From positions 32,001-96,000 of IMG/VR virus record IMGVR_UViG_2894787282_000001: a stretch of 64,000 nucleotides of DNA. The stretch is one strand, 5' to 3'. This document shows, in pieces, positions 22,314 to 53,801 of the stretch (its first letter is position 1; each line of letters opens with the position of its first letter). Position numbers and translations under genes: made by a program. Source of the DNA: a virus (lineage: Duplodnaviria; Caudoviricetes). Under the pieces are notes generated by a model, which saw only the letters and a program-made list of their open reading frames with translations, ran no database searches and was not told the DNA's origin.

Positions 22314-23693
22314 ATGGCCTCGCATAAACCACCCCCGCTCTTCAAGCATCAAGGCCAAACCAAGAAAGCGCTCAAAAATGCACACCGATTCTTTGACCAA
22401 AGCGAGCCCGGCACGGGGAAAACCCGTGTCGAGGTCGAAGACTTCGCAGAGCGCCGCGCCCGTGGTGGCAAGCCAGCCATCGTCCTGGCCACCCGCTCCA
22501 CGATGGACTCGGCCTGGGGCGACGACTTCAAAAAGTACGCCCCAGACCTCAAAGTCGCTGTGGCCTACGCGAACAATCGAGAGAAAGCCTTCGCCTCGGG
22601 CGCAGATGTTTACATCACGAATCACGATGCGGTGAACTGGCTAGCCAAGCAGAAGGCACCGTTCTGGAAAAAGTTCGAGGGTGGCACACTGGTCGTCGAC
22701 GAGAGCACTGCCTTCAAGCACAACACAAGCATGCGTTCAAAGAACGCAGCCAAGATCATCAAGCGCTTCGAGTGGCGGCGCATGATGAGTGGCCTGGCTG
22801 ACCCCAACGGCATCCTTGACCTCTGGCACCAGTATTTCCTGCTCGACGAAGGCAAGCGCCTGGGCAAGAGCTTCTTCGGGTTTCGCAGCGCCGTCTGCAC
22901 ACCACAGCAGGTCGGCCCGATGCCCAACATGGTCAAGTGGGTCGAAAAAGAAGGCATCGCCAACATCGTCGCCGCCCTGGTCAAAGACATCACCATCAAG
23001 CACCTGTTCGAAGAGTGTGTCGACATTCCACCCAACCACGAATACACCCGCGCCGTCACGCTAGGGACCAAACATGCGAAGCACTACACCGAGATGGCTG
23101 AGGACATGGTCACGATGGCTAAGGGTCAAGTCCTGTCAGCTGTCAACAAAGCGGTGCTTTGTATCAAGCTGCTACAAATTGCATCGGGCGCGGTGTACAA
23201 CAGCGAAGAGACCGGCTATACGCGCTTCGATACTGACCGCTATGAGCTTGTGCTCGATCTGGTTCAGGAGTGCGAGCATAGCGTCGTGTTTTTCCAGTGG
23301 GAGCACCAGCGCGACGAACTCGTCAAAGAAGCCGAACGACGTGGCCTGAACTTCGCTGTCTACGACGGCAAAACAACGGACAAAGAACGCAAGGCGATCA
23401 CCGAGGACTTCCAGAAGGGCGCCTACGACTGCATCTTCGCCCACCCCAAAAGTGCGGCGCACGGGCTCACCTGGGTCAAGGGTACACGCACCATCTGGGC
23501 GTCGCCTTCATCAAATTTGGAGTGGTACAGGCAAGGCTTAAAGCGTATCTATCGCATTGGCCAAACGCAGAAAACCGAAACCATCACCATCATTGCAGCA
23601 GGAACTTACGACGAAGTCGAGTGGGAGCGCCTGACAGGCAAGTGCCTTCGCTCAGATGAGTTCACTCAGAAGCTGAAGGAATTTCTTTCATGA
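22314..23693 (+). CDS. SNF2-family helicase
   Basis: PGTGKT, VVDES, HPKSAAHGLT, Q...RIYRIGQ. Confidence 0.88.
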   Translation: MASHKPPPLFKHQGQTKKALKNAHRFFDQSEPGTGKTRVEVEDFAERRARGGKPAIVLATRSTMDSAWGDDFKKYAPDLKVAVAYANNREKAFASGADVYITNHDAVNWLAKQKAPFWKKFEGGTLVVDESTAFKHNTSMRSKNAAKIIKRFEWRRMMSGLADPNGILDLWHQYFLLDEGKRLGKSFFGFRSAVCTPQQVGPMPNMVKWVEKEGIANIVAALVKDITIKHLFEECVDIPPNHEYTRAVTLGTKHAKHYTEMAEDMVTMAKGQVLSAVNKAVLCIKLLQIASGAVYNSEETGYTRFDTDRYELVLDLVQECEHSVVFFQWEHQRDELVKEAERRGLNFAVYDGKTTDKERKAITEDFQKGAYDCIFAHPKSAAHGLTWVKGTRTIWASPSSNLEWYRQGLKRIYRIGQTQKTETITIIAAGTYDEVEWERLTGKCLRSDEFTQKLKEFLS

Positions 23694-24193
23694 GCGCCCC
23701 GCACACTCCTGAATCCTTCTGGGCGAACGTCAAAAAGCAACCGTCAGGCTGCTGGGAGTGGCAAGGCTGTACAAACGTTCCGAATGGCTACGGACTTGTC
23801 AGGTGGGACAGAAAGCAACGAGTCACACATCGAGTCGCAGCTTTCATAAGCGGCATGATTGTGGACGTCAAAGCGCCACCAAATAAGCAAGACAAAACGC
23901 ACGTCCTACACACATGCGACAACAAACTTTGCTGTAACCCAGATCATTTATATCTGGGTTCCTATTCAGACAACCTGCGCCACGCTTACAAAACAGGACT
24001 GAAGAAGCCAGCCTGCGGAGAGCATGCAAACTCAAAATTAACTGCCTTAAAAGTGCGCCAGATATTCACAAAACGCCGCCAAGGACAGCCCCGTGCATCG
24101 GTTGCAAACCAATTTGGTATCTCAAAAGCAATGGTAGACAAGATTGCTCAAGGAAACGCTTGGAAACACATCACAAAGGAGTTTTTAGCATGA
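23690..24193 (+). CDS. HNH homing endonuclease
   Basis: GCWEWQG, HR, VLHTCDN..CCNPDHL.LG...DN; C-terminal HTH. Confidence 0.85.
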   Translation: MSAPHTPESFWANVKKQPSGCWEWQGCTNVPNGYGLVRWDRKQRVTHRVAAFISGMIVDVKAPPNKQDKTHVLHTCDNKLCCNPDHLYLGSYSDNLRHAYKTGLKKPACGEHANSKLTALKVRQIFTKRRQGQPRASVANQFGISKAMVDKIAQGNAWKHITKEFLA

Positions 24194-24395: not shown

Positions 24396-24740
24396 ATGAA
24401 CATCACCTTCGACCCTGCCGCCACAGGTGCAGATAAAACCGTCATCACTACATGGCTTCGCAGACCTGCGATCCTCAATCGCCCACACCTCAGCCCAGAC
24501 TCAATCATCGCGGTAGGTTTTGGCTCAGCCTTCTGTACTAAAGACCTTGAACTCATCTGCGACGAGCAAGACGTGCCGGAAGGAGATGAGTACAGAACCT
24601 GCGCTGACATCGAACTGCTGGCAGCTGCTGACCCGGACCATGACTGGCAGATCAATTACCACGCACCGCTGTACGACGCTGTCTATCAACGCCAAGACGG
24701 CTTCTGGGTGCTGATCGAAGAAGGGCGAGGTTTTGCATGA
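24396..24740 (+). CDS. Hypothetical phage protein
   Basis: Coupled ORF; YQRQ...WVLIE.G.GFA end. Confidence 0.6.
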   Translation: MNITFDPAATGADKTVITTWLRRPAILNRPHLSPDSIIAVGFGSAFCTKDLELICDEQDVPEGDEYRTCADIELLAAADPDHDWQINYHAPLYDAVYQRQDGFWVLIEEGRGFA

Positions 24741-25840
24741 ATAACCAGCACATCATCTTCGACTGCGAAATCATCGGCAAAGACAAGCCGGTCTTCCTGG
24801 TCCGCACGCTGAACGTCGAGACGCGCGAGCGCTGCGAGTTTTGGTATCACAAGCGCGGCCACATGAACAAGCTGGCGCGCATGCTGGCCACCCCGGACTA
24901 CACCTGGGTGGGGTTCAACAGCGAGAACTTCGACCGGCCTCTGATCGCCATGGCCATGGACCCGGAGTACGACGTGCACGGTATCAAAGAGCTGGCCACG
25001 ATCATCATCGAAGAACGGCTGCGCTCCTGGCAGACCTACAAGCAGTTCAACCTGGAGTTCATCGACTACGACCACATCGACCTGTTTGAAGTCATGCCTG
25101 GTGTGATGATCAGTCTGAAGACCTACGCCGGGCGCATGGGTTACAAGACCATGGTCGACCTGCCCTTCCACCACGACACCGACCTGACCCCAGCCCAGCA
25201 GAAGGTGCTCAGCACCTACTGCGACAACGATCTGGGTGTCACCGAAGCGGCGTTTCTGAGCCAGAAGACCGAGCTGGAGCTGCGTGCCGAGATGAGTGAA
25301 GAGTACGGCATCGACCTGCGCTCCAAGAGCGACGCCCAGATCGCCGAGGCCATCCTCAAGAAGCGCGTGGGCATCGGTGCTGGCTCCAAGCATGTACCGC
25401 ACAGTGTCGATTACGAGGCCCCTGACTTCATCGTCACAGACAGCCCTGTCATCAACGAGCTGGCCGACCTGCTCAGCCGCTTCCCCTTCGTGCTCAACCG
25501 TGGCAACGGCAGTCCGACGGCACCCAAGTTCCTCGACGAGCCAGTCGTCATCGGCAGTGGCACCTACCAGTGCGGCGTGGGTGGGTTACACAGCACCCAC
25601 GACAAAGCTATGTACCTCGAAGCCTCTGACGACTTGCTGCTCAGTGACTTTGACGTGGCCAGCTACTACCCCAACATCATGCTCAAGGCGGGCCTGGCTC
25701 CAAAGCTCGGTGGCAACAAGGGCAACAAGTTTCTCGAAGAGTACCGACACATCTACGAGACACGCATTGCGGCAAAGCGACGCGCTCAACAACTATCTGC
25801 TGAGATCAAAGTGATTGAGGCCCAGTTGGCAAATGGCTAA
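24737..25840 (+). CDS. DNA polymerase family B, N-terminal fragment (3'-5' exonuclease, motif A, first fingers helix)
   Basis: FDCE ExoI, GFNSENFD ExoII, YCDND ExoIII, GGLHS, DFDVASYYP; stops shortly after RIAAKR. Confidence 0.87.
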   Translation: MNNQHIIFDCEIIGKDKPVFLVRTLNVETRERCEFWYHKRGHMNKLARMLATPDYTWVGFNSENFDRPLIAMAMDPEYDVHGIKELATIIIEERLRSWQTYKQFNLEFIDYDHIDLFEVMPGVMISLKTYAGRMGYKTMVDLPFHHDTDLTPAQQKVLSTYCDNDLGVTEAAFLSQKTELELRAEMSEEYGIDLRSKSDAQIAEAILKKRVGIGAGSKHVPHSVDYEAPDFIVTDSPVINELADLLSRFPFVLNRGNGSPTAPKFLDEPVVIGSGTYQCGVGGLHSTHDKAMYLEASDDLLLSDFDVASYYPNIMLKAGLAPKLGGNKGNKFLEEYRHIYETRIAAKRRAQQLSAEIKVIEAQLANG

Positions 25841-26321
25841 TCGAACGTATCACGAGCGAGGAAAACTAATCCAAGGTTTTCCTTGCAAAAAGCACCCGCT
25901 CTATAACACCTGGGTGCTGATGCGTCAACGCTGCGACAACCCGAATAATCCAGCGTACCGTCATTACGGTGGCCGAGGGATCACAGTTTGCGAACGCTGG
26001 CAATCTTTTGAGAACTTCGCGCTGGACATGGGGATGAAGCCCTCGCAAAAGCATTCTCTTGAGCGCGAAGACAACGACAAGGGTTACTCGCCCGAGAACT
26101 GCAAATGGGAAACCGTTGAAGCACAACGGCTTAACCGACGTTGCTTTGTGACCAGCGAAAGCGGTCACACCGGAGTTCGCCAAATCAAACCCGGTTGCTT
26201 TCAAGCAATGGTTCATATCAACAAAGTGAGATATATCCTTGGAAAATTCAAAACCATCGAAGAAGCTGTCGCAGCAAGAACGAACTTCATTGCAAACAAA
26301 GCTGGAAAAGCTCAAAACTGA
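25833..26321 (+). CDS. HNH endonuclease with AP2-like C-terminal domain, interrupting the polymerase
   Basis: W..MRQRC.NP....Y..YGGRGI.VC.RW..FENF..DMG...SLER.DN..GY.PENC.W; SG.TGV...LGKF.T.EEA..AR. Confidence 0.87.
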   Translation: MANRTYHERGKLIQGFPCKKHPLYNTWVLMRQRCDNPNNPAYRHYGGRGITVCERWQSFENFALDMGMKPSQKHSLEREDNDKGYSPENCKWETVEAQRLNRRCFVTSESGHTGVRQIKPGCFQAMVHINKVRYILGKFKTIEEAVAARTNFIANKAGKAQN

Positions 26322-27228
26322 GCGACGCAAAAACCTTCAAGTTGCAAACGCGCTTAAGATTTGCCTTAACGGCACGTTCGGCAAACTAGGCAGCATTTAC
26401 TGCAGCTTCTATGCGCCTGAACTGATGCTCGCTGTGACGCTGACAGGCCAGCTCAACTTGTTGTGCCTCATCCACGAGCTGGAGAAGATCAAAGGTTGTA
26501 ATGTCAAGTCGGCCAACACCGACGGCCTACTTGTTGCCTACAAACCTAATGTTCGTGAGCGTGTGCTGAAAGTCTTTGCTAAAAACGCAAAGCACACGGG
26601 TTTCGAGTACGAAGAAACTCCGTACGCCAAGTACGCAGCCAAGGACGTAAACAACTTTATCGCTCTCAAGACCGACGGCAAAGTCAAGTCCAAGGGGCTA
26701 TACACCCTGAATGACCCCAAAGATAATCCGCTGTACCTGATGAAGAACCCGACGATGGACGTGTGCACACGCATGGTCATCGACTATCTCAAGTGCGGCA
26801 CACGCCCTGAGTCCAGCATCCTTGGTTACACCGACATGAAGGACTTCGTGGCCATCCGCAACGTCCAGGGCGGCGGCATCCAGTACACCGGGTACAAAAA
26901 GGTGGACGACTGGGTCGAGACCGCGCCGGGCAACTGGCGTCGTCCTGACTGGCCCAGCCTGAAAGCCTCGGTACGTCGCAAGTCGCGCCCCGCTCCGGTG
27001 GATGTCGGTGTCGGTGGTGAGCCCTTTGGGCGTGTCGCACGCTGGTACATGACGACGGCTGACCTGCCCCCGCTCACGTACCTCAGCTCGGGCAACCAGG
27101 TGCCCAAGACTGAAGGCGCTCGCATCTGCATGACGCTGCCCGACAAGCTGCCCAAGGACTTGAACAAACAGTGGTACGTCGACGAGGCGTACGCAATCTT
27201 GGAGTCAATCGGCGTGAAGGCGCGATAG
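26239..27228 (+). CDS. DNA polymerase family B, C-terminal fragment (motifs B, C, thumb)
   Basis: LKICLNGTFGKLG, TLTGQL, SANTDG, DVNNFIA, KSKG; TTG start uncertain. Confidence 0.85.
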   Translation: MENSKPSKKLSQQERTSLQTKLEKLKTERRKNLQVANALKICLNGTFGKLGSIYCSFYAPELMLAVTLTGQLNLLCLIHELEKIKGCNVKSANTDGLLVAYKPNVRERVLKVFAKNAKHTGFEYEETPYAKYAAKDVNNFIALKTDGKVKSKGLYTLNDPKDNPLYLMKNPTMDVCTRMVIDYLKCGTRPESSILGYTDMKDFVAIRNVQGGGIQYTGYKKVDDWVETAPGNWRRPDWPSLKASVRRKSRPAPVDVGVGGEPFGRVARWYMTTADLPPLTYLSSGNQVPKTEGARICMTLPDKLPKDLNKQWYVDEAYAILESIGVKAR

Positions 27229-30406: not shown

Positions 30407-31060
30407 ATGACAAAGCTCACTGACTTGTCGGGAAAGGTCATCGGGCGACTGTTCGTTCAACGCCGTGCCAAAGACTTCGTACAGCCAAACGGTCGAAAGC
30501 GCGCTCAATGGCATTGCATCTGTGCCTGCGGAAACGTGATATTGGTTGAAGCCAGCAATCTTGCTTCAGCTCACACACGTTCTTGCGGGTGCCTGGTTGT
30601 GGACACCTGTTCTGACGTTGGATGCAAAAATCGAACGCACAGCAAGACAGACACCCGCGAATGGAACGCGTGGGCCGGAGCCAAGAGTCGGTGCTCTAAT
30701 CCAAACGTAAGCGCGTTTAAAAACTACGGTGGGCGTGGAATAACAATGTGCCGTCGATGGCTAAATTCATTCGCAGCGTTTTTTGCTGACATGGGGCCTT
30801 GCCCTCCAAGATTCACTCTCGAACGCAAAGATGTGAACCGAGGCTATACCCCCAAAAATTGCATCTGGGCTTCAGCCAAAACGCAAGCCCGCAATAGACG
30901 CACCACTGTTTATGTGCGGCGTAAAGGCCGAAAAATCACTTTGGCTCAAGCGGCTGAAGACCACGGTTTACGACTTAGCCTTGTGCGCGACAGATTTTGC
31001 CGCCAAGGTTGGAGTCTTGAAAGATCATTAACAACCCCTGTAAGGAAAATCTGTGTTTAA
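30407..31060 (+). CDS. HNH homing endonuclease
   Basis: W.C.C.CG...SCGC; RC.NPN....NYGGRGI..C.RW...F.ADMG...ER.D.N.GY.P.NC.W. Confidence 0.87.
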   Translation: MTKLTDLSGKVIGRLFVQRRAKDFVQPNGRKRAQWHCICACGNVILVEASNLASAHTRSCGCLVVDTCSDVGCKNRTHSKTDTREWNAWAGAKSRCSNPNVSAFKNYGGRGITMCRRWLNSFAAFFADMGPCPPRFTLERKDVNRGYTPKNCIWASAKTQARNRRTTVYVRRKGRKITLAQAAEDHGLRLSLVRDRFCRQGWSLERSLTTPVRKICV

Positions 31061-31919
31061 ACCATTACTTGCTGCAGCTATTGAAGACGTCACCAAGCTA
31101 GATTTTTCACGAGGCTGGATGGTTTCCGCCAAGCTCGACGGCGTACGCGCCATCGTTAAGGATGGCATCGTACTCTCACGAAGTCTGAAGAAGATTCCAA
31201 ATCTGCACGTTCAGACTCTGTTCGGCCAGTGCGAGCACTTCGACGGCGAACTCATCGTCGGTGAACCGACCAGCAAGACCTGTTACACCGACACGGTGTC
31301 CGGGGTCATGCGTGTCAGCGGGCAACCCGACGTGCGGTTCTACGTGTTCGACAGCGTTCAGTTTCCGCAACGCACCTACTTCGAGCGCCGCCCTCGGCTT
31401 TCAGACGAACAAAAGCACCTCGTCGAAGTTAAGCAGACCGTCATCAACGACCTCGACGAGCTACTGGCAATGGAACAGCGCCACCTGACGCTGGGCTACG
31501 AAGGCTTGATCCTACGTGACCCAAACGGCAAATACAAGTTTGGACGCAGCACGGCCAATGAAGGTATTTTGCTCAAGCTCAAGCGTATGGAAACCGACGA
31601 AGCCGTCGTGCTTGCGGTCGTCGAAGAGCAGCACAACGGCAACGAGGCGACAACCAGTGAGCTGGGCCGCACCAAGCGCAGTTCGCACCAAGCGAACAAG
31701 ACGGGCAAGGGTTCGATGGGCGCGCTGCATGTGCGTGATGTCAAGAGCGGCATCGACTTTCACATTGGAACAGGCTTTACCGCTGAAGACCGCGCAGCCC
31801 TTTGGGCCAAACCACCTATCGGGAAGATCGTCAGCTACAACCACTTCCCTATTGGGCGCGTTGACCGACCCCGACACCCCTCGTTCAAGGGGTTCCGCGA
31901 CGCGCGAGATATGTCATGA
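31053..31919 (+). CDS. ATP-dependent DNA ligase (small, viral type)
   Basis: KLDGVR, FDGEL, VFD, EGLILR, LLKLK, IGTGF. Confidence 0.9.
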   Translation: MFKPLLAAAIEDVTKLDFSRGWMVSAKLDGVRAIVKDGIVLSRSLKKIPNLHVQTLFGQCEHFDGELIVGEPTSKTCYTDTVSGVMRVSGQPDVRFYVFDSVQFPQRTYFERRPRLSDEQKHLVEVKQTVINDLDELLAMEQRHLTLGYEGLILRDPNGKYKFGRSTANEGILLKLKRMETDEAVVLAVVEEQHNGNEATTSELGRTKRSSHQANKTGKGSMGALHVRDVKSGIDFHIGTGFTAEDRAALWAKPPIGKIVSYNHFPIGRVDRPRHPSFKGFRDARDMS

Positions 31920-32359
31920 AGACGCACGGCCACGGCTCAGTTGCAAAGGGTATCTCTACGACTTACCGCAGCTGGCAAGAGATGCGTAAACGGTGCAACA
32001 ACCCGAACGTGATCAGCTACAAAAATTACGGCGGGCGGGGTATACGTATTTGCCCGCGCTGGGATTCATATGAAGCGTTCCTTCAAGACATGGGCGAGCG
32101 CCCACCAGGCACCAGTCTCGACCGCAAAGATGGCGAAGGCGACTACACGCCAGAAAACTGTTGTTGGTCTACACGTTTGGTCCAAAACAACAACCGACGC
32201 AACTGTCTTTTTGTGACACACCTCGGGCGTAAACAAACCGTTGCACAGTGGTGCACCGAGCTGAAATTGAACTACGCACGGACCTACAGCCGATTGTTTC
32301 GTTCGTGTATGCCTCCCGCGCAAGCCTTCGCAGCGCCAGCTCTGCGCAAAAGCCTATGA
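31916..32359 (+). CDS. HNH homing endonuclease
   Basis: W.EMRKRC.NPN...YKNYGGRGI.IC.RW...DMGERP...SLDR.D..G.Y.PENC.W. Confidence 0.85.
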   Translation: MKTHGHGSVAKGISTTYRSWQEMRKRCNNPNVISYKNYGGRGIRICPRWDSYEAFLQDMGERPPGTSLDRKDGEGDYTPENCCWSTRLVQNNNRRNCLFVTHLGRKQTVAQWCTELKLNYARTYSRLFRSCMPPAQAFAAPALRKSL

Positions 32360-35350: not shown

Positions 35351-35758
35351 ATGAAAACACCACTCTTTGAACTCGGCCAGATCGTGGCCACCCGAGGCGC
35401 GCCTGTGGACGCCGACCTCGACAAGCTGGTCAAAGAGCTGGCTGACGTGGGCTACTACGCCATCCGCCTCGACCACAAGGAGTGGGAACGCTGGGCCTGG
35501 CCCGGTGGCTACCCGCTCTACTACCTCTGCGCTGACGGCGGCGTGCTGTGCAGCAAGTGCGCGAACAAAGAGATTGAGTTGACCAGCACTCCAGACGCTG
35601 AGGCGGACTGGCACATCGTCGCGGCTGACATCAACTACGAAGACCCGCATCTGGAGTGCAGCGCCTGTGGCGAATTCTGCGAGTCTGCGTACGGTGAACC
35701 GATTGACAAGGACATGGGGTCCTCGCACAGCAGCGTCTGCCCAGGAGCCACATCATGA
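35351..35758 (+). CDS. Zn-binding hypothetical phage protein
   Basis: AWPGGYPLYY...LC..CA...INYED..L.C..CG...ESAY. Confidence 0.65.
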   Translation: MKTPLFELGQIVATRGAPVDADLDKLVKELADVGYYAIRLDHKEWERWAWPGGYPLYYLCADGGVLCSKCANKEIELTSTPDAEADWHIVAADINYEDPHLECSACGEFCESAYGEPIDKDMGSSHSSVCPGATS

Positions 35759-35970
35759 CCGCCACAGCCACAGCCACTCTGCAAGACGTGCACGGCAAGA
35801 AGGGCCGTGGCAGCCGGATCGAGGTCAAGTTGTCTGCCACCCAGATCGACTTCCCGTACACCGACGAGGCGCAGCGCCTGGCCCAGTTGGGCAACGCCCG
35901 CGCCTACCTCAAGCACGCGCAGCAGGCCGGTGCCAAACTGAAGATCAAGGAACTGGAGGACAAGGTATGA
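35755..35970 (+). CDS. Small hypothetical protein
   Basis: AGGAG RBS, coupled. Confidence 0.5.
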   Translation: MTATATATLQDVHGKKGRGSRIEVKLSATQIDFPYTDEAQRLAQLGNARAYLKHAQQAGAKLKIKELEDKV

Positions 35971-36596
35971 GCACATTAAGTGGTTCAATTATCGGGAGGT
36001 GGCGTGTTTTTGAGCGTGTCGCAGAACCACGCAAAGAAACAAAATACAGATGCATATGCGTGTGCGGCACTGAGCGCTTGATTCGCGCGTCCAGACTTTC
36101 TTCGTTTGACTCGCTGTCATGTGGGTGCATGGCAAAAGACCTTCTCTCTGAAGCCACTAAAACGCATGGAATGTCTAAATCCGCCGAGTTCCGCGCTTGG
36201 GCAAACATGTGGGACCGTTGTACGCGGCCCACGCACAAACAATACCCGCAATACAAAGCGCGAACGCCGCCATTGCGCTGGCGCTCATTTGAAATGTTTC
36301 TTTCGGATGTAGGGCTCCGCCCAAGCAAATTGCATTCTTTGGACAGGATAGACAACAGCAAGCCTTATGGACCCGATAACACACGTTGGGCGACATCCAC
36401 ACAGCAGCAAAACAACACGAGCCGCACAGTTCGCTTAACCCACGCTGGGCGCACGCAAGGCATCGCGCAATGGGCGAGAGAACTAGGTGTATCAAAAAGC
36501 ACTTTGTGTACGCGCCTTTATCGCGGCTGGACCGTAAACGAAATACTCGCGCGGCCCATCCGTGCTAAGCATAAGGAGCAGCAACTATGTCCATGA
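35967..36596 (+). CDS. HNH homing endonuclease
   Basis: C.C.CG...SCGC; W..M..RC; SLDRIDN...Y.P.N.RWAT...Q.NN. Confidence 0.85.
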   Translation: MSTLSGSIIGRWRVFERVAEPRKETKYRCICVCGTERLIRASRLSSFDSLSCGCMAKDLLSEATKTHGMSKSAEFRAWANMWDRCTRPTHKQYPQYKARTPPLRWRSFEMFLSDVGLRPSKLHSLDRIDNSKPYGPDNTRWATSTQQQNNTSRTVRLTHAGRTQGIAQWARELGVSKSTLCTRLYRGWTVNEILARPIRAKHKEQQLCP

Positions 36597-37446: not shown

Positions 37447-37752
37447 ATGACCCTCGTCCTCAGCCCCGAGGAACTGGTCAGCCTGACCGGATACAAGCAG
37501 CCTGCCCGGCAGGCCAAGTGGCTCAAGACCAACGGCTTCAAGTTCATCATGAACCGCTTCAAACAGCCCAAGGTCGACCGAGCCCACTACCACGCCAAGA
37601 TGGGGCTTGGCAAGATCAAAGAGCCCGAACCGAACTGGACCGCGAAACAAGGAGCAATCAATGAGCAACAACCTGCCCGTGCCAGGCGTGCCGGGCCTGT
37701 ACCAGCGTCCCGGCAAGCGCCGGGTCTTGTACTTCTGCAAGCCTCAAAATAA
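37447..37752 (+). CDS. Excisionase-like protein (DUF4224-like)
   Basis: LS.EEL..LTGYKQ...Q.KWL..NG..F; overlaps integrase start. Confidence 0.72.
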   Translation: MTLVLSPEELVSLTGYKQPARQAKWLKTNGFKFIMNRFKQPKVDRAHYHAKMGLGKIKEPEPNWTAKQGAINEQQPARARRAGPVPASRQAPGLVLLQASK

Positions 37753-38707
37753 ATACACGCCGCTGGGCTACGACCTCGAAGTGGCCAAGGCCGAGCTGGC
37801 CAAGCTCATGGAAACGCCGCCCGCGCCAGGCCAGCACACCGTGGCGTACATGTGCCACGAGTTCATCAAGGAGCAGCGCGCGTACATCGCCGCGCATGAC
37901 CCAGAGGCACGCGCGGTCAGCACCATCGACGACTACGAGGCCAGCCTGACGCGCTTCATCATCCCGGTCTTCGGCCACATGCACCCGGACAGCGTGACCA
38001 AGAACCACATCGCCAAGTACCTCAAGGATGGCCGTGCCACACGGCGTGTTCGGGCCAACCGCGACCGCGCTGCACTCTCCGGCGCCTACAAGTTCGGCCT
38101 CGGTGAAGGGCTGGCGCAAGCCAACCCCTGTATCGGCGTGCCGCGCAACATGGAGCGTGCCCGTACGCGCAAGGTCTCCATCGCAGAGTTCAACGACTTT
38201 CTGGAGCACGCCCGCAGCAAGGGCGGCTCGGCCTACCTCGTGGCCCTGATCGGCTGCACCGTGGCTCTCACCGGCAGGCGCCGGGCCGAGATACTGCACC
38301 TGACCAAGAGCGCTCTGCAGCCCGAGGGCTTCAAGGTCAAGGACTCCAAGACCAAGTTCAACGAGCCTGAGCGCCACTACCTCATCGCCTGGAGCGACCT
38401 GCTGCACCAGGTGATAGCTGAGGTGGCAGCGATCAAACGCCGGGTGTCGAGCATCTACCTGTTCGCCACGCTCGACGGCACGCCGTACGTCGACGCAGGC
38501 TTCAAGTGCCTGTGGAACCGGCTGATGCACAGCTACGCACCGGGCGGCACCAAGGACGCCAAGTGGTTCACGGCGCACGACCTGCGCGCACTTTATGTCT
38601 CAGAAATGAAACACCAGGAGCGTGATCCCAACACCCACCGCCAGGAAAAGACCATGAACCGGGTCTATGACCGGCGCGAATTGATCAAGGTAACGCCGCT
38701 GGCGTGA
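37661..38707 (+). CDS. int: Tyrosine integrase
   Basis: TG.RRAEIL.L, KT, HDLRA, C-terminal VY; AAGGAG RBS. Confidence 0.88.
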   Translation: MSNNLPVPGVPGLYQRPGKRRVLYFCKPQNKYTPLGYDLEVAKAELAKLMETPPAPGQHTVAYMCHEFIKEQRAYIAAHDPEARAVSTIDDYEASLTRFIIPVFGHMHPDSVTKNHIAKYLKDGRATRRVRANRDRAALSGAYKFGLGEGLAQANPCIGVPRNMERARTRKVSIAEFNDFLEHARSKGGSAYLVALIGCTVALTGRRRAEILHLTKSALQPEGFKVKDSKTKFNEPERHYLIAWSDLLHQVIAEVAAIKRRVSSIYLFATLDGTPYVDAGFKCLWNRLMHSYAPGGTKDAKWFTAHDLRALYVSEMKHQERDPNTHRQEKTMNRVYDRRELIKVTPLA

Positions 38708-39401: not shown

Positions 39402-39478
39402 TGGGGTGGCTGATGGGGCTCGAACCCACGACAACAGGAATCACAATCCTGGACTCTACCAACTGAGCTACAGCCACC
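39402..39478 (-). tRNA. tRNA-His (GTG); prophage attachment site
   Basis: GGTGGCTGTAGCTCAGTTGGTAGAG...GATTGTGATTC...GGTTCGAG...CAGCCACCCCA with G-1 and CCA. Confidence 0.97.
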
Positions 39479-39672: not shown

Positions 39673-40053
39673 TCAACGCGGTGTGATTCGTTTGGGCTCT
39701 ACATCGGTGACCTCTGTCACGTCCGTCACCTCTGCATCCACCACGTTGTCAGGGCTCGGCGTTGCCCTGCCAGGCTGGCCAAAACCGCCTTGGTTAAAAC
39801 GCTGCCACATGGCCTGGCGATTCATCTGAAACGTCCATGGGCTCACCGGCTGGCCGGTTAACTTGGCCCACAACGCACGCAACAGCCAAAGGATCAGAAC
39901 CAGCAAACCTGCGGCCATCAAGCTGGCAAAAAACACCAGCCCCGCCAGCAGCAGTCCGACCCGCACAACAAAACCCAATAATTTCAACAACACGTCACTC
40001 AAAACATTGCTCCTTGTGAACCGTTCAAATGGGGCATCCATCCCCTTTTGCAA
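39673..40053 (-). CDS. Hypothetical membrane protein (host)
   Basis: Hydrophobic N-terminal half, VVDAEV tail; start uncertain. Confidence 0.6.
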   Translation of the reverse strand: MQKGMDAPFERFTRSNVLSDVLLKLLGFVVRVGLLLAGLVFFASLMAAGLLVLILWLLRALWAKLTGQPVSPWTFQMNRQAMWQRFNQGGFGQPGRATPSPDNVVDAEVTDVTEVTDVEPKRITPR

Positions 40054-40110
40054 GCCACTTTACCTCGCCGATGCAAGCCACCACACTCTGTGGCACAAGC
40101 GCTTTCTTCT

Positions 40111-42318
40111 TCAAAGCGACCCGGCAACGGCTTGTATCTGCCCGCCCACCCGGCGCAGCACCGCATACGGCGGCAAGCCTTTCAGCATACGTCTGCCATA
40201 CGGGGTGGACAGCAGGCGTTTGTCGTAACACACCACCCGCGCCAAATCGTCTTCGGTGCGGATGGCGCGCCCGGTCCACTGCAGCAGGCGAATGCCAGTG
40301 GCAGGCACCACCAGTTCAGAAAACGGATCGCGCCCTTCGCGCTTGAGCCACTCAGAACGGGCTTCCTCCACCGGGTCGGATGGGGAGGCAAAAGGCAGTT
40401 TGGTGATGAACACCGTCTCGCACAACTGGCCAGGCAAATCCAGCCCCTCGCCAAACGACTGCATGCCAAAAATCACGGAGGGCTGGCCCGCCTCCACCCG
40501 CGCCATGTGGGTGCCCAGCAGACGCGCACGCGACAACTGGCCTTGCACCAACACCATGCCCAACAGTGCAGCGTCCAGCGCATCCACCGCTGCCTTCATC
40601 TGCGCACGCGAGGTGAACAGCACCAATGCGCCGTGCGCGACCAAGCGCAAATCGGCCTGCAAGGTGGCGACCATCTCACGGGTGAAATTCTCCACCTGAC
40701 GTGGGTCGGCCACGGTGTCGACCACCAGTAACTGGCCCTGCTTGCGGTAATCAAACGGGCTGTCCACCGCCAGCGTGCTGACATGGTCGAGCCGATGCAG
40801 CCCGGTTTCTGCCAAAAAATAGTCAAAACTGCCACAACTGGTGAGAGAAGCCGAGGTGATCACCGCACCACGCACCTGACGCCACAGGTGGTGGCGCAGC
40901 AAGCTGCCAGGCACGATCGGGCAGGCATGGGCACTCAATGACACCAAGCCGCTGCTGGTGTCGGACTTGAGCCACTTGGCCATCGGCTGCGCGTCATGGG
41001 CCAGCAGCATCGCGCTGGTGCCCAACACGCTGTTGAGTTTGGGCGCCATCTGGCCCAGCTTGGCGTACTGCACCGAGTTTTGGGCAGCTTGTGTCGGGTC
41101 TTCTTTGGCGCGGGCTTTGAGTTCCGCCCCCAGGGCTTCAAGCACCTCCGACAAACCTTTGGCATGGCCCTGAATCAGAGACATCGGGTCCATAAAAGCT
41201 TCGGGTAGCACACCATCCGGAAAACGGTGCACGATGTCGTAGCTGTCGGTCACACCACGCAGCAAGTCCATGGCAATGCGGCCAGCGTCCAGCAGTGCGG
41301 TTTTGAGCTGCTGGGCCAAGGTGATCACATCTTGCTCGACCGCAACTCCCATTTTTTCAGCCACTTCGTGCAGGATTTTGGGCAGCTTGTCGAGCCAGCG
41401 CAGGCCGGTCAGGTCCATGGCGCCCGAGAACTGGTCCAGCGCCACCGCAGGCAGGTGGTGGCCTTCGTCAAACACCACCAGGCAGTTGTCGAGTTCGGGC
41501 AGCGCCTTCATACCCAGCGAGGCCAGCACCAGGTCGTGGTTGGCCACAATCACCTGGGCCTGTGCCAACAGCGTACGTGCGTTGTAGTAACTGCAATTGC
41601 GAAACAGCGGGCAGTGGCGTGCGGTGCAGGTGTGGCGCTCGGCGGCTACCGTGGACCAGTCGCGCGGGTCGGGCTGCTCGGCCAGGCTGTCGCGGTCACC
41701 ATCCCAACGGCCAGCGGCCAGCGCATTGGCCAGGGTGTCGTACAAGGCCATACGACGCTCTTCGGGATCTTGCCAGTCCTGGCCCTTGAGCTGTTTGGCA
41801 TACGCGGTTGGGGGCGGCGGCGCATCTTCATCCACGCCAAACAACTCGCTGCTGTCGTCCTCACCGGCTCCGGCCAGACGCTCCAGTTTGAGTTTGCAGA
41901 CATACCGACCCCGGCCCTTGGCCAATGCGTACACAAACGGGGTGTCCAACGCTGCGGCCAGCGCGGGCAGGTCTTTGGTCATGAGCTGCTCTTGCAGCGC
42001 CACCGTGGCGGTAGAGACCACCACCCGTGTCTTGCGTGCCAGCGCCAGCGCCACTGTGGTCGACAAATAAGCTGCCGATTTGCCAACACCGGTACCGGCC
42101 TGGATCACCGCAATGGCTTTTTCGGGGTCAGCGTGCTCACCGAGGGTGACGTTGTGCAAGGCGGTGGCAATGCGTTCTGCCATCTCGCGCTGGCCGGGAC
42201 GCGACCGGAACGCCGAAGTGCTGGCGACCATCCGGTCAAACGCGGCCAGCGACAGCGCTGCCAAGGGGTGGTCAGTCAAAGCGACGCCCACCCGCGCCCA
42301 CCGTGGTGGCTTCAACAA
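40111..42318 (-). CDS. dinG: ATP-dependent helicase DinG
   Basis: QAGTGVGKS, AKGRGRYVC (Fe-S cysteines), DEGHH, SF.EGLDLPG, Q..GR.IR. Confidence 0.92.
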   Translation of the reverse strand: MLKPPRWARVGVALTDHPLAALSLAAFDRMVASTSAFRSRPGQREMAERIATALHNVTLGEHADPEKAIAVIQAGTGVGKSAAYLSTTVALALARKTRVVVSTATVALQEQLMTKDLPALAAALDTPFVYALAKGRGRYVCKLKLERLAGAGEDDSSELFGVDEDAPPPPTAYAKQLKGQDWQDPEERRMALYDTLANALAAGRWDGDRDSLAEQPDPRDWSTVAAERHTCTARHCPLFRNCSYYNARTLLAQAQVIVANHDLVLASLGMKALPELDNCLVVFDEGHHLPAVALDQFSGAMDLTGLRWLDKLPKILHEVAEKMGVAVEQDVITLAQQLKTALLDAGRIAMDLLRGVTDSYDIVHRFPDGVLPEAFMDPMSLIQGHAKGLSEVLEALGAELKARAKEDPTQAAQNSVQYAKLGQMAPKLNSVLGTSAMLLAHDAQPMAKWLKSDTSSGLVSLSAHACPIVPGSLLRHHLWRQVRGAVITSASLTSCGSFDYFLAETGLHRLDHVSTLAVDSPFDYRKQGQLLVVDTVADPRQVENFTREMVATLQADLRLVAHGALVLFTSRAQMKAAVDALDAALLGMVLVQGQLSRARLLGTHMARVEAGQPSVIFGMQSFGEGLDLPGQLCETVFITKLPFASPSDPVEEARSEWLKREGRDPFSELVVPATGIRLLQWTGRAIRTEDDLARVVCYDKRLLSTPYGRRMLKGLPPYAVLRRVGGQIQAVAGSL

Positions 42319-42620
42319 ACAGCCACAGACAACGCGACATGGATATTTTTTTAATATAAATCATAGGCTTATGCCCAAACCAAGCATCTGGTTCAGGCGC
42401 CGATGATTGTATCTGGCAAGGCTTAACCCCCGTGATGCACGCCAAGACAGCTTTCACAGGTATGCCATCCAAGTCCCAAAACCAATGACCGGATCAATGC
42501 AAGGCGTGCAAACTCGCTACGCCACATAGGCAAACGGGGACCCGTGGCCCCCGTGTTGTCATGCTTTAGACAGACTTACCAAAAGTGTCCAACACCCTGG
42601 TGTTGACACTCGCACAACAT

Positions 42621-43823
42621 CTAAGCAGCCGCAAGCAGGTTCATCGCGTGTTTGGCAATCATCATTTCTTCGTTGGTCGGCACCACAAAGGTGGGAACGC
42701 GTGCATCTGTCGCCGAAATGTTGAATTGACGTGAAGAGTTGGCATCAGCATCCAACTTGACACCGAGCCACGCCAGACGTTGAGCAATCATGTTGCGAAT
42801 GTAGGGCGAGTTTTCTCCGATACCAGCCGTAAACACCAGAGCATCAAGCCCGCCCATGGAGGCAGCCATCGCAGCAACTTCCTTGGCTACGCGAAAACAG
42901 AACAGGTCAACAGCTTCTTTGGCGTGGGGATCGTCCGACTCCTCGAGCACCTTCATGTCATTGGACAGGCCGGATACACCGAGCAAACCCGAACGCCGAT
43001 ACAGCAGATCCTCGATGGCTTCCAGGTCCATCTTCTTCTCACGCATTAGGTAGAGCAGCACACCCGGATCAATGCTGCCCGAGCGGGTGCCCATCGGCAC
43101 ACCGTCCAGCGCCGTGAAGCCCATGGTGGTGTCCATGCTGCGGCCATCCTTGACTGCACACAGGCTGGATCCATTGCCCAAATGACAGATCACGATGTGG
43201 CCTGAGGCCAACTCCGGGCGCGTGGCCAGCAGTTGTTTGCTGACGTATTCGTAAGACAGGCCGTGAAAACCGTATTTGCATACACCCTCGTCGCTAAGTG
43301 CCCGTGGCAGTGCGTAGGTCTTAGCCTGCTTGGGTTGGGTGCTATGAAAAGCGGTGTCAAAACAAGCCACCTGATCCAGTTCAGGGTGATTGCGTGCCAG
43401 GATATGGATGGGTGCCAAATTGTGTGGCTGATGCAGCGGTGCCAGCGGAACCAGTTGCTCCAGATCGTTCAACAACGCAGGTGTGACCTTCATTGGCAGG
43501 CCCAGGAAGCGCCCGCCATGAACCACGCGATGGCCGGCGGCAACAATCTGATCGTCCACCAGGGTGCTACTGATCCAGTCCAGCAGATACTGGAGCATGA
43601 TGTCGCGGCTGTTCGAGTCGCTTTCGTTCCAGCTGTGTTTGGCCAAAACGCGGCGACTGGCGTCTTTGGCTTCAAAGGTGGCAAGGCTGCCAATTCCCGC
43701 AATCTGTCCAGACAGGATGGTTTGCAACTCTGTGGAGCCCGTCGCTTGGCGAAATACTGAAAACTTCAGGCTCGAAGAACCGGCGTTGAGAACCAGATAG
43801 GCTTTGTGCTTGGTCATGTTCAT
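42621..43823 (-). CDS. ackA: Acetate/propionate kinase
   Basis: LNAGSSSLKF, GHRVVHGG, FDTAFH, YGFHG.SY, HLGNG.S, FTAGIGEN. Confidence 0.93.
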   Translation of the reverse strand: MNMTKHKAYLVLNAGSSSLKFSVFRQATGSTELQTILSGQIAGIGSLATFEAKDASRRVLAKHSWNESDSNSRDIMLQYLLDWISSTLVDDQIVAAGHRVVHGGRFLGLPMKVTPALLNDLEQLVPLAPLHQPHNLAPIHILARNHPELDQVACFDTAFHSTQPKQAKTYALPRALSDEGVCKYGFHGLSYEYVSKQLLATRPELASGHIVICHLGNGSSLCAVKDGRSMDTTMGFTALDGVPMGTRSGSIDPGVLLYLMREKKMDLEAIEDLLYRRSGLLGVSGLSNDMKVLEESDDPHAKEAVDLFCFRVAKEVAAMAASMGGLDALVFTAGIGENSPYIRNMIAQRLAWLGVKLDADANSSRQFNISATDARVPTFVVPTNEEMMIAKHAMNLLAAA

Positions 43824-43910
43824 GTTTCACTGTGTAGGTTGAACAGCGCCCAATGGACATCAAGTCACTTCAGGCTGATGCAGAGAATATACGACAAAGT
43901 CTGCAATTTA

Positions 43911-43968
43911 TGAAACATCGTTTCAATAATTTGTGAAAATAGTCATCGTAAACAAAACAGTGTTTCAT
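43911..43968. promoter_or_regulatory. Two KdgR-like operators in the divergent ackA/uxaB region
   Basis: TGAAAC-ATC-GTTTCA (43911-43925) and AAAAC-AGT-GTTTCAT (43954-43968) match the GAAACNNNGTTTC KdgR box. Confidence 0.6.
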
Positions 43969-44165
43969 GTTTCTTGGATTTTGACCCGATTTGGTGTAGA
44001 GTCCGCGCCTGTCAAGCACACACAAGTGTGAATCGAGCGATCAAGCGCCTGCCCAGGGCAAGCCTAACCACCATTGGCCGCTTTGACGGCACATTCTGAC
44101 AAACACCTGAAGTGCGCTGCGCTCTTGGAGGCACGGCGGAATAAATGACCAGAAAGGATCAAGAC

Positions 44166-45662
44166 ATGTATGAACTGAACCGCCAGAGGCTTGCCGAAGG
44201 CAAACTGGGTGTTGAATCAACAGCCCCCTCGTCCCTGAAGCCCGTGCGCATCCTGCAAATTGGTGACGGCAACTTCCTGCGCGGCTTTGTCGACTGGATG
44301 GTCGATGTGACCAATGGTGCGGGCCTGATGAACGCCGAAGTGATCATGGCGCAACCCATCGACCGCGGTATCGCCGACCTGATGAAAGCCCAGGACCAGC
44401 TGTTCACGGTATTGTTGCGCGGTGTGCAAAATGGCCAACCGGTCCAGTCCAAACGCTTGGTGAGCTGTGTCAAAGACACCCTCAACCCCTACACCCAATG
44501 GGACGCCATGCTGGCCACTATGCAGGACCCGACTTTGCGTTTTGTCGTCTCCAACACCACCGAGGCCGGTATCGCTTATGTCCCTGAAGCCTTGTTCGAA
44601 GGCCAATGCCCGGCCAACTTCCCGGCCAAGGTGACGGCGCTGCTGCTGGCGCGTTTTAAAGCCTTTGGCGGCTCCGCTGAATCGGGCCTGGTGTTCCTGC
44701 CCGCTGAACTGATCGAAGCCAACGGCACCAAGCTCAAAAACTATGTGTTGCAATTTGCCGATGTCTGGAAGTTGCCCTCAGAGTTCGTCGCTTGGGTCAA
44801 AGAACACAACGTGTTCTGCAACACCCTGGTGGACCGCATCGTCCCGGGTTATCCTGCTGCCGAAGCCGAGGCGCTGTTCGCCGAGTTTGGCTACAAGGAT
44901 CCGCTGACGGTGGCGGCCGAGCCGTTCCTGCTGTGGGTCATCGAAGGGCCGGCCAAGATTGCCGACGAACTGCCTCTGCACAAGGCGGGCCTGGATGTGG
45001 TGTGGACAAAAGACTTGCAGCCCTACCGCACACGCAAGGTGCGCATTCTCAACGGCGCCCATACCGCCAGTTCTCTTGCGGCCTACTGCGCCGGGCTGGA
45101 CACGGTGCGCGAGATGACCGAAGACGCTGTGGTGTCCAAGTTCCTGAACAAGGTGATGTTCGAAGAAATTGTCCCCTTTGTGCCACTGCCAGAGGCCGAG
45201 CGCAAGGCTTATGCAGAAACCATTGTGGAGCGTTTTGCCAACCCACACATCCGCCATGAACTGATCTCGATTGCGCTGAATTCGGTCTCCAAGTGGCAGG
45301 TGCGGGTGTTGCCAACCATCAAGGATTACGCTGCCAAACACGGCAAAGCACCTGCCGGGCTCTCGTTTTCATTGGCTGCGCTGCTCACTTTTTACAAGGG
45401 ACAGTTCGCTGCGAACGGAGACTACGAGGGTCTGCGCCAGGGACAAAGTTATCCGATCAAAGACAACGCCGACATTCTGGTCATCATGCACGCTGCGTGG
45501 CATGGCGCCACGGACTTGAACCAAGTCGCATCAACGCTGCTGGCAGACGTCCGGCTGTGGGGCGAGGACCTGACCCAGGTTCCTGGCTTGGCCCAGCAGA
45601 CGGCCAGCGCTTTGATCCGGATCAAGGAGATCGGTATCAAGTCGGCCATGGGCGCGCTGTGA
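44166..45662 (+). CDS. uxaB: Tagaturonate reductase (altronate oxidoreductase)
   Basis: QIGDGNFLRGF, VSNTTEAGI, FPAK.T, NTLVDRIVPGYP, RKVRILNGAHT, ISIALNS.SK. Confidence 0.9.
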   Translation: MYELNRQRLAEGKLGVESTAPSSLKPVRILQIGDGNFLRGFVDWMVDVTNGAGLMNAEVIMAQPIDRGIADLMKAQDQLFTVLLRGVQNGQPVQSKRLVSCVKDTLNPYTQWDAMLATMQDPTLRFVVSNTTEAGIAYVPEALFEGQCPANFPAKVTALLLARFKAFGGSAESGLVFLPAELIEANGTKLKNYVLQFADVWKLPSEFVAWVKEHNVFCNTLVDRIVPGYPAAEAEALFAEFGYKDPLTVAAEPFLLWVIEGPAKIADELPLHKAGLDVVWTKDLQPYRTRKVRILNGAHTASSLAAYCAGLDTVREMTEDAVVSKFLNKVMFEEIVPFVPLPEAERKAYAETIVERFANPHIRHELISIALNSVSKWQVRVLPTIKDYAAKHGKAPAGLSFSLAALLTFYKGQFAANGDYEGLRQGQSYPIKDNADILVIMHAAWHGATDLNQVASTLLADVRLWGEDLTQVPGLAQQTASALIRIKEIGIKSAMGAL

Positions 45663-45885
45663 ACCCGTGAAGAAGGCAAAATACAGGGTCTTGTGCTTTA
45701 CATCAATAAGCTAACAGAAAACTGACTATCCACCATGACCACAGGCACGATCTGGCGCAAGTCGACCACCGATGGCACCAAGCGTGAACAGACTCCACCT
45801 GACTCGATGCTCCCTAGCGGAACATCGAGTGAACGTTAATGACTCACAGAGCGAGATTTTTAAAATGACTAAGGAATTGAAAAAA

Positions 45886-47304: not shown

Positions 47305-47318
47305 TAAAAGCTTGCGTC

Positions 47319-47360
47319 AACGCGCTTGTCCCGGCTTCGGGGCAAGCGCGTTTTTCTTTT
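47319..47360 (+). terminator. Rho-independent terminator after pyk
   Basis: AACGCGCTTGTCCC...GGGGCAAGCGCGTT followed by T tract. Confidence 0.75.
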
Positions 47361-47502
47361 TGTGCGTTACCCGGGCACCTTTGCAAAACGCACCACCAGA
47401 TCGGCAAGCAAGGCACGCCGCCCTTGCCTATTCTCTCAATCACAGCGTTGAAGTTCAGCAGGCAATCAGGCCACAGCAAATGCCTGCGCACTCAGATCCA
47501 GA

Positions 47503-47654
47503 TCAGCGGTTCACGGGAAGATAAGACGTGATATTGGCCAGCGCACGGTCAACATACAGCTCTTTTTCACCGACTGGGGCCACGTAAAACATCGCTTCCT
47601 TGGCTGCCTCCAGCCCCGCCAGGCGGGCAATGACCCAGGTTGCCAGGGGGGGGA
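47503..47654 (-). pseudogene. 3' remnant of a DJ-1/PfpI-like host gene cut by prophage 2
   Basis: Start-less frame LATWVIARLAGLEAAKEAMFYVAPVGEKELYVDRALANITSYLPVNR* abutting the phage junction. Confidence 0.55.
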
Positions 47655-47890
47655 TGTTTGAATTGATCCAGGGGAAAGGCGCCAGAAATACCGAAAAAGG
47701 CCTATTGAATCAATGATTTACGGGAAAGAGAGCAAAAACGCCAGGAACGTTTATTTTGATCCAGTCAGTGACCAAAATTCGACTGAAAGTGTTCATTAAA
47801 TGCCGATTAAATGCCTGGTGAAGTGCTAGAAAAATGCCCGAATATTGCTAAGAACAGACGATGGGCTTAAACTTCGACCAAGTCAGTGGA
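47655..47890. repeat. Putative transposable-phage end with transposase and IHF sites
   Basis: 5'-TG at 47655; TTGATCCAG at 47663 and 47756, related TTCGACCAAGTCAGTG at 47873; IHF-like AATCAATGATTTA at 47708; ATTAAATGCC twice. Confidence 0.5.
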
Positions 47891-49518: not shown

Positions 49519-49523
49519 GCAGC

Positions 49524-53798: not shown

Positions 53799-53801
53799 TG
53801 A

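Follow-up and report, generated by a model that had tools for sequence, protein, structure and literature searches.

A nuclease-bearing cassette at the fingertip of a prophage family-B DNA polymerase and the helical arms that it may carry

Introduction

Can a DNA polymerase whose gene is broken in two by a nuclease gene, between the two helices of its fingers, still come together as an enzyme? The question is raised by a 64,000-nucleotide stretch of viral DNA (Caudoviricetes; positions 32,001 to 96,000 of IMG/VR record IMGVR_UViG_2894787282_000001), hereafter the window, in which the two halves of a DNA polymerase gene, Pol-N and Pol-C, flank and overlap a gene for a putative endonuclease. The initial annotation of this locus, made from the sequence alone, proposed a splicing-free heterodimeric polymerase held together by an extended coiled coil of the fingers. 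The explanation that best accounts for the whole of the evidence, and that we regard as probable, is a two-chain polymerase made without splicing, the gene of which would have been entered by a mobile cassette bearing two helix-coding arms. The sequences show the layout of the locus, the limits of the insert, the conserved and registered arms and their lack in the closest uninterrupted relatives, the scatter of split forms over the polymerase tree and the fused derivatives; we infer two-chain assembly, pairing of the arms, homing and initiation of Pol-C at a TTG codon.

Results

Three overlapping reading frames

Pol-N, the nuclease gene and Pol-C lie on the same strand in three different frames (Table 1). 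When the DNA and its open reading frames (ORFs) were re-read, the coordinates, the overlaps of 8 and 83 nucleotides (nt) and the peptides quoted in the initial annotation all proved correct, the translations giving RIAAKR followed by RAQQLSAEIKVIEAQLANG and a stop, as well as QQERTSLQTKLEKLKTERRK and LKICLNGTFGKLG. The nuclease start at ATG 25833 shares 8 nt with the end of Pol-N (stop codon 25838-25840; ATGGCTAA). The nuclease ORF is also open from a TTG at 25815, and its stop codon (26319-26321) falls 83 nt into Pol-C. The frame of Pol-C opens only at 26230, behind the TGA at 26227-26229, and offers just two start codons before motif B, TTG 26239 and TTG 26290. The Pol-C leader had been described as overprinted on the nuclease C-terminus, and the dual-coding stretch bears this out, the TIEEA of the nuclease frame being PSKKLS in the frame of Pol-C.

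Table 1. Features of the split polymerase locus, in window coordinates
Feature	Coordinates	Strand	Description
Pol-N	24737-25840	+	367 amino acids (aa) forming the N-terminal half of a family-B polymerase, with the exonuclease domain, motif A and the first fingers helix
Pol-N tail	25781-25837	+	RAQQLSAEIKVIEAQLANG; amphipathic helix prolonging the first fingers helix
Inserted cassette	25781-26340	+	560 nt: tail codons, nuclease gene and leader codons; replaces 15 nt (codons AGNKK)
Nuclease gene	25833 (ATG)-26321	+	162 aa from the ATG; PHROG class 'HNH endonuclease', possible AP2-like C-terminal domain
Putative Pol-C start region	26226-26241	+	Weak Shine-Dalgarno-like GTGAG, then TTG 26239; probable start of Pol-C
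Dual-coding stretch	26239-26321	+	83 nt coding in different frames for the nuclease C-terminus (ending in KTIEEAVAARTNFIANKAGKAQN and a stop) and Pol-C residues 1-28
Pol-C leader	26239-26340	+	34 aa; residues 12-34 helical and running on into the second fingers helix
Pol-C	26239 (TTG)-27228	+	329 aa forming the C-terminal half, with the leader, the second fingers helix (motif B), the palm (motif C) and the thumb

Both halves belong to a family-B DNA polymerase

The split gene is a family-B DNA polymerase, as supported by its exonuclease (Exo), A, B and C motifs and by sequence and fold matches to solved polymerases. On the 663 positions of the phage DNA polymerase profile phrog_1252, Pol-N occupies 52-405 (E 5.5e-76) and Pol-C 389-654 (E 1e-69). 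Neither half matched Pfam, and Pol-N alone had no sequence match in the PDB. A phmmer search of the PDB with Pol-C found the family-B polymerase 1s5j (E 5.6e-5) and E. coli Pol II (E 6.5e-4), and Pol-C also matched the NCBIfam Pol II models, below the cut-offs of those models. The AlphaFold models of Pol-C and Pol-N, with a mean predicted local distance difference test score (pLDDT) of 86.5 and 74.8, respectively, were matched by Foldseek to archaeal family-B polymerases, Pol-C to 4fm2_A (E 2.3e-5, probability 1.0) and Pol-N to 5mdn_A (E 7.5e-4, probability 1.0).

The motifs of the exonuclease domain are FDCE at residue 8, NSENFD at 61 and YCDND at 161 of Pol-N, and D9, E11, N61, D66, Y161 and D165 are invariant across 17 N-halves. 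The polymerase motifs are DFDVASYYP at 304 and RIAAKR at 343 in Pol-N, KICLNGTFG at 40 in Pol-C and SANTDG at Pol-C residues 91-96, the last being invariant in 49 aligned C-halves. Together they represent Exo I-III, followed in order by motifs A (DxxSLYPS-like), B (KxxxNSxYG-like) and C (DTD-like). Both halves are full-length and open, and every catalytic motif searched for is present. Among cultured phages nothing closer than 37% identity to Pol-N was found, and a scan of genome contigs with Pol-N returned no relative. The 'DNA polymerase subunit' labels in Lokivirus proved to denote a processivity factor and a whole polymerase. As a separate observation, in some relatives, split and unsplit, the N-terminus of the polymerase is extended by a fused 5'-3' exonuclease domain (PF02739/PF01367; P0047, P0350, P0359, P0306, P0307, P0317 and P0344-P0346; loci L011, L014 and L027, with ORFs of about 1000 aa).

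The insertion site lies between the two fingers helices

Alignment to uninterrupted homologues placed the break between the two fingers helices, one residue past the conserved R343-x3-K347 pair. It upheld the earlier description, in which Pol-N ends just after the first fingers helix with an extra tail and Pol-C reaches motif B by way of an extra helix. At this site uninterrupted relatives read AAK[RH]-AGNKK-VANALK, the closest being L004 and L005 (80-83% identity) and P0240 and P0241 (90-91%), and the tail and leader extensions are missing in all four. The extensions had been called novel; this holds in so far as the closest uninterrupted relatives do not have them, but they are not unique to the locus, since 23 tails and 77 leaders of the kind were found.

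The boundaries of the insert were read from G001, a complete 66.2-kb phage genome with terminal repeats that is collinear with the window. The homology of G001 51512-52536 stops at window position 25779/25780, and that of G001 52551-54159 picks up again at 26339/26341, so that about 560 nt (25781-26340) replace 15 nt; G001 has just 14-15 nt where the window carries the cassette, and collinearity is interrupted only across 25780-26338. The GC content is 0.487 in the cassette, while the polymerase sequence on either side has 0.591 and 0.568.

The tail and the leader share a heptad pattern

Aligned from the anchor motif onward, the 23 tails need no gaps. Positions 5, 9, 12 and 16 are L, I, V, M or F in all 23, with position 9 always I and position 16 always L or I, and E is found at position 8 in 19 and at position 13 in 21. 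The 77 leaders, a set from which C-half sequences without motif B within 24-52 residues and apparent fragments of unsplit genes were left out, were anchored on NGxFGK. They are hydrophobic at -26 (100%), -22 (96%) and -19 (95%), and to a lesser extent at -15 (61%) and -12 (51%), while -16 is E in 70 of the 77. The conserved positions of the arms thus keep hydrophobic residues at 4-3-4 intervals, the polar residues in between being variable, and this heptad pattern is conserved in the 23 tails and 77 leaders far beyond chance. Counted from the native fingertip, by arithmetic on the alignments, the seams fall at 5, 9, 12 and 16 in the tail and at 3, 6, 10, 13 and 17 in the leader. Such matching seams are the pattern that two antiparallel helices lengthening the fingers hairpin should show. 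In the AlphaFold models, residues 328-365 of Pol-N form one unbroken helix comprising the native first fingers helix and the tail, and residues 12-47 of Pol-C form another, comprising the leader and the second fingers helix, with a pLDDT of 93-95 over residues 11-30.

The split recurs with the same architecture

Then, how widespread is this arrangement? We examined the best 120 near-length relatives of Pol-N and the 118 other matches listed for Pol-C. Seventeen of the former are N-halves that end 18-33 residues past the AK[RHK] anchor and carry a tail, and 71 of the latter start with a leader ahead of motif B. Nucleotide sequence was available from 184 DNA sources (183 loci from IMG/VR and metagenomes, several of which duplicate one contig, and the window). 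The polymerase gene is unsplit in 163 of these and split in 6; the remaining 15 contain the N part only, a tail being visible in 2 of these 15. In all six split loci a homologous nuclease gene of 158-297 codons lies between the halves and the C-half starts 34-95 nt within the nuclease 3' end; four of the six also have an overlap of 8-11 nt between the nuclease ATG and the Pol-N stop. Altogether, dozens of 90%-identity clusters, with identities of 37-88%, share this split layout and its conserved arms.

Contigs from sequencing runs of wastewater relatives (4 of the 8 listed), which are probably DNA, gave pieces that match parts of the cassette at 96-98% as well as joints that skip it, and one loose end resembles an unsplit AKH-SGNKK-VA allele; these runs have no bearing on splicing or expression. 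The literature searched, in which the primary papers on T4-type split gp43 do not figure, held no description of this arrangement for this polymerase clade.

Single-chain relatives in which the tail runs into the leader

The initial annotation had named extensions in unsplit homologues as an observation that would count against it. Such extensions were found, in four of the best 120 longer relatives and in one locus, always with the tail fused to the leader. In P0242 (88% identical to Pol-N), P0252, P0264 and P0337, the polymerase is a single chain, with the tail continuing directly as the leader, and the unsplit polymerase ORF of locus L052 has a shorter version of the same fusion. The fused fingertip measures 34-53 residues in these five as compared with 11. 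In this screen 2 of the 120 longer relatives did not match the search pattern, and three apparent hits are artefacts of the regular expression, L174 (length 24) being derived from a split gene and P0313 and P0349 (length 84) having short fingertips.

The fusion junctions differ, falling after tail residues ~14, 13, 18 and 17, which points to independent DNA deletions rather than one splice site. P0242, P0252 and P0337, three of the four, retain KLS.QER or SKSSQER, a peptide that arises in the split genes when the DNA for the ..TIEEA.. helix of the nuclease C-terminus is read in the frame of Pol-C. This helix region is also aligned in nuclease copies outside polymerase genes, where the matches reach residue 149. 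Because the footprint of the overprint is kept, and its helix is also found in nucleases outside polymerases, the fused forms would be scars of nuclease loss and not ancestors of the split. They provide natural long-finger family-B polymerases, and the fusions of tail to leader are best read as nuclease-loss derivatives. A join of tail and leader over a few residues would require the two helices to lie side by side, which implies a helical hairpin.

The nuclease and its probable mobility

The nuclease matched phrog_374, annotated 'HNH endonuclease', with E 2.5e-47, whereas the PDB gave no significant family for it and a profile search there returned no HNH structure. For an AP2 domain the leads are a profile match to the AP2/ERF chain 7et4 (E 0.43), with no Pfam AP2 match, and the neighbouring atlas clusters of the nuclease, where AP2 (PF00847) is found in only 11-16% of members. 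The label 'HNH-AP2' given at first is therefore to be qualified: the PHROG names agree with HNH, Pfam and NCBIfam return neither, and AP2 is a weak lead. The protein is presumed to be a free-standing homing endonuclease. A search with the nuclease protein gave 12 viral loci, none of them within a polymerase gene.

In every split case the same site is occupied, and relatives 90-91% identical are without the cassette. A quick maximum-likelihood tree was made from 111 N-core sequences, 10 of 120 candidates having been omitted (8 without the anchor motif and 2 fragments). On it, the 18 split sequences need at least 14 changes of state, 11 of them forced by well-supported branches; the mean after shuffling was 17.0. 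Among the six split loci, nuclease identity (48-64%) and polymerase identity (38-70%) gave r = 0.23 over 15 pairs. The scatter of the splits, the uncoupled divergence of the nuclease, the homology of the arms and the low GC content together suggest that the cassette may be mobile by homing, with the arms moved by co-conversion. The insert fits a mobile homing cassette that would carry its arms along in this way.

Three more copies of the same nuclease family (40-49% identical, phrog_374) are found in the prophage on the + strand, at 30407-31060, ~31958-32227 and 35667-36596, and there is no copy elsewhere in the 4.47-Mb genome.

Translation signals in the arms

The probable start of Pol-C is TTG 26239. 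This codon is favoured because L129 has a TTG at the same place and four clusters (P0138, P0139, P0150 and P0198, which begin MET..(P)SKKLS) have an ATG at the equivalent residue. At other split loci the C-half starts at an ATG preceded by GAGGAGG or TGAGG, and in L132 the strong Shine-Dalgarno (SD) sequence of the C-half, GAGGAGG, is built from the TIEEA codons of the nuclease. A scan for consensus promoters and terminators found no + strand site within the cassette, a result that carries little weight.

The codons of the Pol-N tail (25781-25832) also serve as ribosome-binding region for the nuclease gene. At L129, L132 and L141 the codons for E-E-L, R-E-L and K-E-L supply GAGGAG, GGGAG and AAGGAG, respectively, 6-11 nt before the nuclease ATG, and the window itself has just TGAGG, farther upstream of its nuclease ATG.

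Discussion

A proposed two-chain polymerase with an arm-bearing cassette

How, then, might the polymerase tolerate the insertion? We propose that a cassette composed of a free-standing nuclease gene and two short helix-coding arms entered the loop between the fingers helices of a temperate-phage polymerase. Three overlapping cistrons, most likely on one transcript, would then encode Pol-N with its 19-residue tail, the nuclease, and Pol-C with its 34-residue leader. No splicing would take place, and the two polypeptides would come together as one polymerase, the tail and the leader prolonging the native fingers helices as an antiparallel two-helix extension. Since the arms would accompany the nuclease gene when it homes into uninterrupted alleles, the insertion could be tolerated. 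Later loss of the nuclease gene would leave a single-chain polymerase with an elongated finger.

So far as it lends itself to sequence comparison, the coiled-coil heterodimer first proposed is supported throughout: by the split at the fingertip, the frames that speak against an intein, the lack of a matching intron family, the predicted helices, the matched seams and the tail-leader fusions. The phrase 'held together by' overreaches, because a polymerase split at the same place, Pfu, is fully active without any zipper (PMC3061061) and the tails of the split NrdA of phage Aeh1 are not needed for heterodimer formation (PMC3045599).

Several observations weigh against the proposal of a two-chain polymerase with an arm-bearing mobile cassette. 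The nuclease has no match in Pfam or NCBIfam, even at E<=10 or E<=1, and the first 'H' of its presumed motif (HSLER) is not conserved in an alignment of eight sequences. The polymerase tree comes from a quick search and not from a finished careful one. The model of Pol-N is only moderately confident across the tail (pLDDT 64-74). The start assigned to Pol-C is a TTG with a weak SD (GTGAG), and gene callers place the start at TTG 26290 instead (P0121, 312 aa). Finally, the conservation of the arms could in part be a by-product, as the tail codons hold the SD of the nuclease gene and leader residues 1-28 are overprinted.

Alternative explanations

The last point leads to the most serious rival, although we think it unlikely: the enzyme would have two chains, but the arms would be no functional zipper, being conserved for the signals of the nuclease gene while the halves join through their large native interface. 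In its favour, three of the six split loci have a nuclease SD of the GAGGAG, AAGGAG or GGGAG type within the tail codons, and the leader is overprinted on the nuclease 3' end over residues 1-28 here and over 11-31 residues elsewhere. The Pfu split at the same place, which requires no added helices (PMC3061061), also speaks for it and against our proposal. However, the conserved positions follow the 4-3-4 spacing of hydrophobic residues and not a nucleotide motif. The commonest class of leader overlaps the nuclease by ~12 codons, yet the positions downstream, -19, -16, -15 and -12, are conserved. Moreover, the arms are retained in four single-chain relatives without a nuclease gene, and the two seams are equal in length.

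Could the polymerase gene simply be dead? If the nuclease insertion had inactivated it in a decaying prophage, Pol-C would not be made. The element is integrated, it holds four nuclease copies of one family and one other nuclease, and Pol-C starts at a TTG with a weak SD. Against this, both halves are full-length and open with their motifs intact, and the prophage runs collinear with G001 (66-81% nucleotide identity), which together argue against simple decay. The recurrence of the split in dozens of clusters with conserved arms would require purifying selection on both halves. We therefore consider a dead gene quite improbable.

A nuclease-encoding intron, of group I or another kind, would be spliced to restore a single chain with a long fingertip like that of P0242, and the single-chain relatives with fused tail and leader are what such splicing would yield. 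Group I introns that encode nucleases are known in phage polymerase genes, as in SPO1. Yet no Rfam intron family was found over 25500-26700, even at E<=10 with permissive filters. Of the 560-nt insert, all but 52 nt on the upstream and 19 nt on the downstream side is nuclease ORF (489 nt), which offers no space for a ribozyme core and agrees with the initial annotation on this point. Between loci the nuclease varies from 158 to 297 codons at 48-64% identity, which is incompatible with a conserved core overlapping the nuclease gene. Nor do the varied fusion junctions in the single-chain relatives (~13, 14, 17 and 18) mark one common splice site. All 23 tails keep L or I at position 16, which would belong to the intron, and the C-halves are equipped with a conserved ATG and SD of their own. 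An intron is thus very improbable. An intein is excluded: the ORFs occupy three frames, which stops at 25838-25840 and 26227-26229 keep apart, and no intein blocks are possible in arms of 19 and 34 residues, so that the absence of intein motifs reported earlier was rightly observed.

Translational recoding into one chain, by a long ribosomal bypass or by a frameshift fusing the nuclease to Pol-C, seems to us scarcely credible: the frame of Pol-C is +1 to that of the nuclease, and a +1 shift within 26230-26321 would fuse the two, but a hop of ~450 nt has no known precedent, the bypass in T4 gene 60 being 50 nt, and homologous C-halves have an independent ATG and SD. No slippery or take-off/landing pair was noticed, although none was specifically sought.

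Comparison with known systems

The locus belongs to the genes-in-pieces class, its coding region being split by an endonuclease gene with tails that are absent from uninterrupted homologues. The worked case is the mobE-split NrdA of Aeh1, in which the insertion-derived tails are essential for activity and for which a general mechanism was proposed (Friedrich 2007, Crona 2011; PMC3045599). As in Aeh1, a free-standing endonuclease gene splits an essential coding region (PMC3045599), here too probably without RNA or protein splicing. In both cases a tail is added to the C-terminus of the upstream half and another to the N-terminus of the downstream half; these tails are absent from uninterrupted homologues and of lower GC content. 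The two cases differ in that the host gene here encodes a family-B polymerase and not a ribonucleotide reductase, and in that the nuclease is of the PHROG 'HNH' class and not of the mobE type. Whereas the Aeh1 tails are reported without database matches, the arms here form a conserved family (23 tails and 77 leaders) in polymerases 37-88% identical, with re-fused derivatives.

A closer parallel in the host gene is gp43, which is split at the fingertip into 43A and 43B in the T4-related phages 133, 44RR, 31, 25 and 65 (via PMC3061061 and PMC2988022). There too, a phage family-B replicative polymerase is split between the fingers helices into two cistrons, and the split of phage 25 goes together with a seg-type endonuclease gene. 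Unlike the T4-type genes, the present one belongs to the phrog_1252 clade and to a temperate, siphophage-like prophage, with at most 37% identity to the cultured phage polymerases found. The intercistronic sequences of the T4 type are diverse (2 bp to 3 kb) and lie in an already long and divergent fingertip, and the excerpts at hand mention no conserved heptad pair.

That a polymerase can be split at this place is indicated by engineered Pfu, which had wild-type activity when its fragments were co-translated or reconstituted from separate preparations, with an altered substrate tolerance (Hansen 2011, PMC3061061). The Pfu split lies at 467/468, two residues past K465 (PMC3061061); here the corresponding lysine is K347, and the native sequence ends at R348. 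Unlike the present split, that of Pfu is artificial, has no added helices and no intervening gene, and concerns a thermophilic archaeal protein (PMC3061061). The fractured genes with split inteins resemble our locus in having an endonuclease gene between two ORFs, the halves of which carry association modules (Dassa 2009, PMC2677866). In those genes, however, the intein halves ligate the protein (PMC2677866), and here the product would stay as two chains. PMC5418858, PMC6486253 and PMC4246154 were considered as precedents and set aside, as they concern other genes.

What is new here is the different polymerase clade, the widespread and conserved family of arms that goes with the nuclease, the dual-coded expression signals and the natural re-fused derivatives. 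For nuclease genes inside essential genes with neither intron nor intein, there has until now been essentially one worked example, Aeh1 NrdA, the tails of which have no relatives. The present locus points to a family, with dozens of split polymerases bearing homologous heptad-patterned arms, together with naive alleles and nuclease-loss scars. Since naive alleles, split forms and scars are all at hand, the life cycle of the element (invade, compensate, decay) may be readable from sequence. Nature thus offers matched polymerases of three kinds, single chains with a short finger, two-chain forms and single chains with a long finger, which would be useful for studying the role of the fingertip in fidelity and nucleotide selection. 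On a broader proposal our judgment is evenly balanced, namely that these are widespread 'split-and-zip' elements in which a homing nuclease with complementary arms invades the polymerase fingertip, spreads horizontally and leaves long-finger scars. If this is true, a selfish element both offsets its own damage and remodels the nucleotide-binding fingers of replicases.

Prophage context and neighbouring genes

The window is part of a 4.47-Mb genome, and its collinearity with G001 extends over 1-39 kb. An integrase gene at 37607-38707 (+ strand; tyrosine-integrase-like, phrog_1) and a tRNA-His gene at 39402-39477 (- strand) mark the right end of the prophage, and window positions 40000-59999 had no match in three related complete phage records.

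One of the additional phrog_374 nuclease copies lies directly upstream of an ORF for an ATP-dependent DNA ligase (31053-31919). This ORF, of 288 aa, covers profile positions 221-502 only, and it was considered as a second split gene, but no upstream piece of a ligase was seen and the candidate was rejected. An unrelated nuclease gene at 23690-24193 (+ strand; zf-His_Me_endon E 1.2e-6, HNH_3 E 8.5e-5, phrog_59, GC content 0.488) sits between a gene for an SNF2-type helicase (22314-23693) and the polymerase operon. It too looks like an insertion, because G001 has ~260 nt where the window has ~1070 nt. Farther on, at 47985-49328, is a head-protein-like gene (phrog_220) that possibly belongs to another element.

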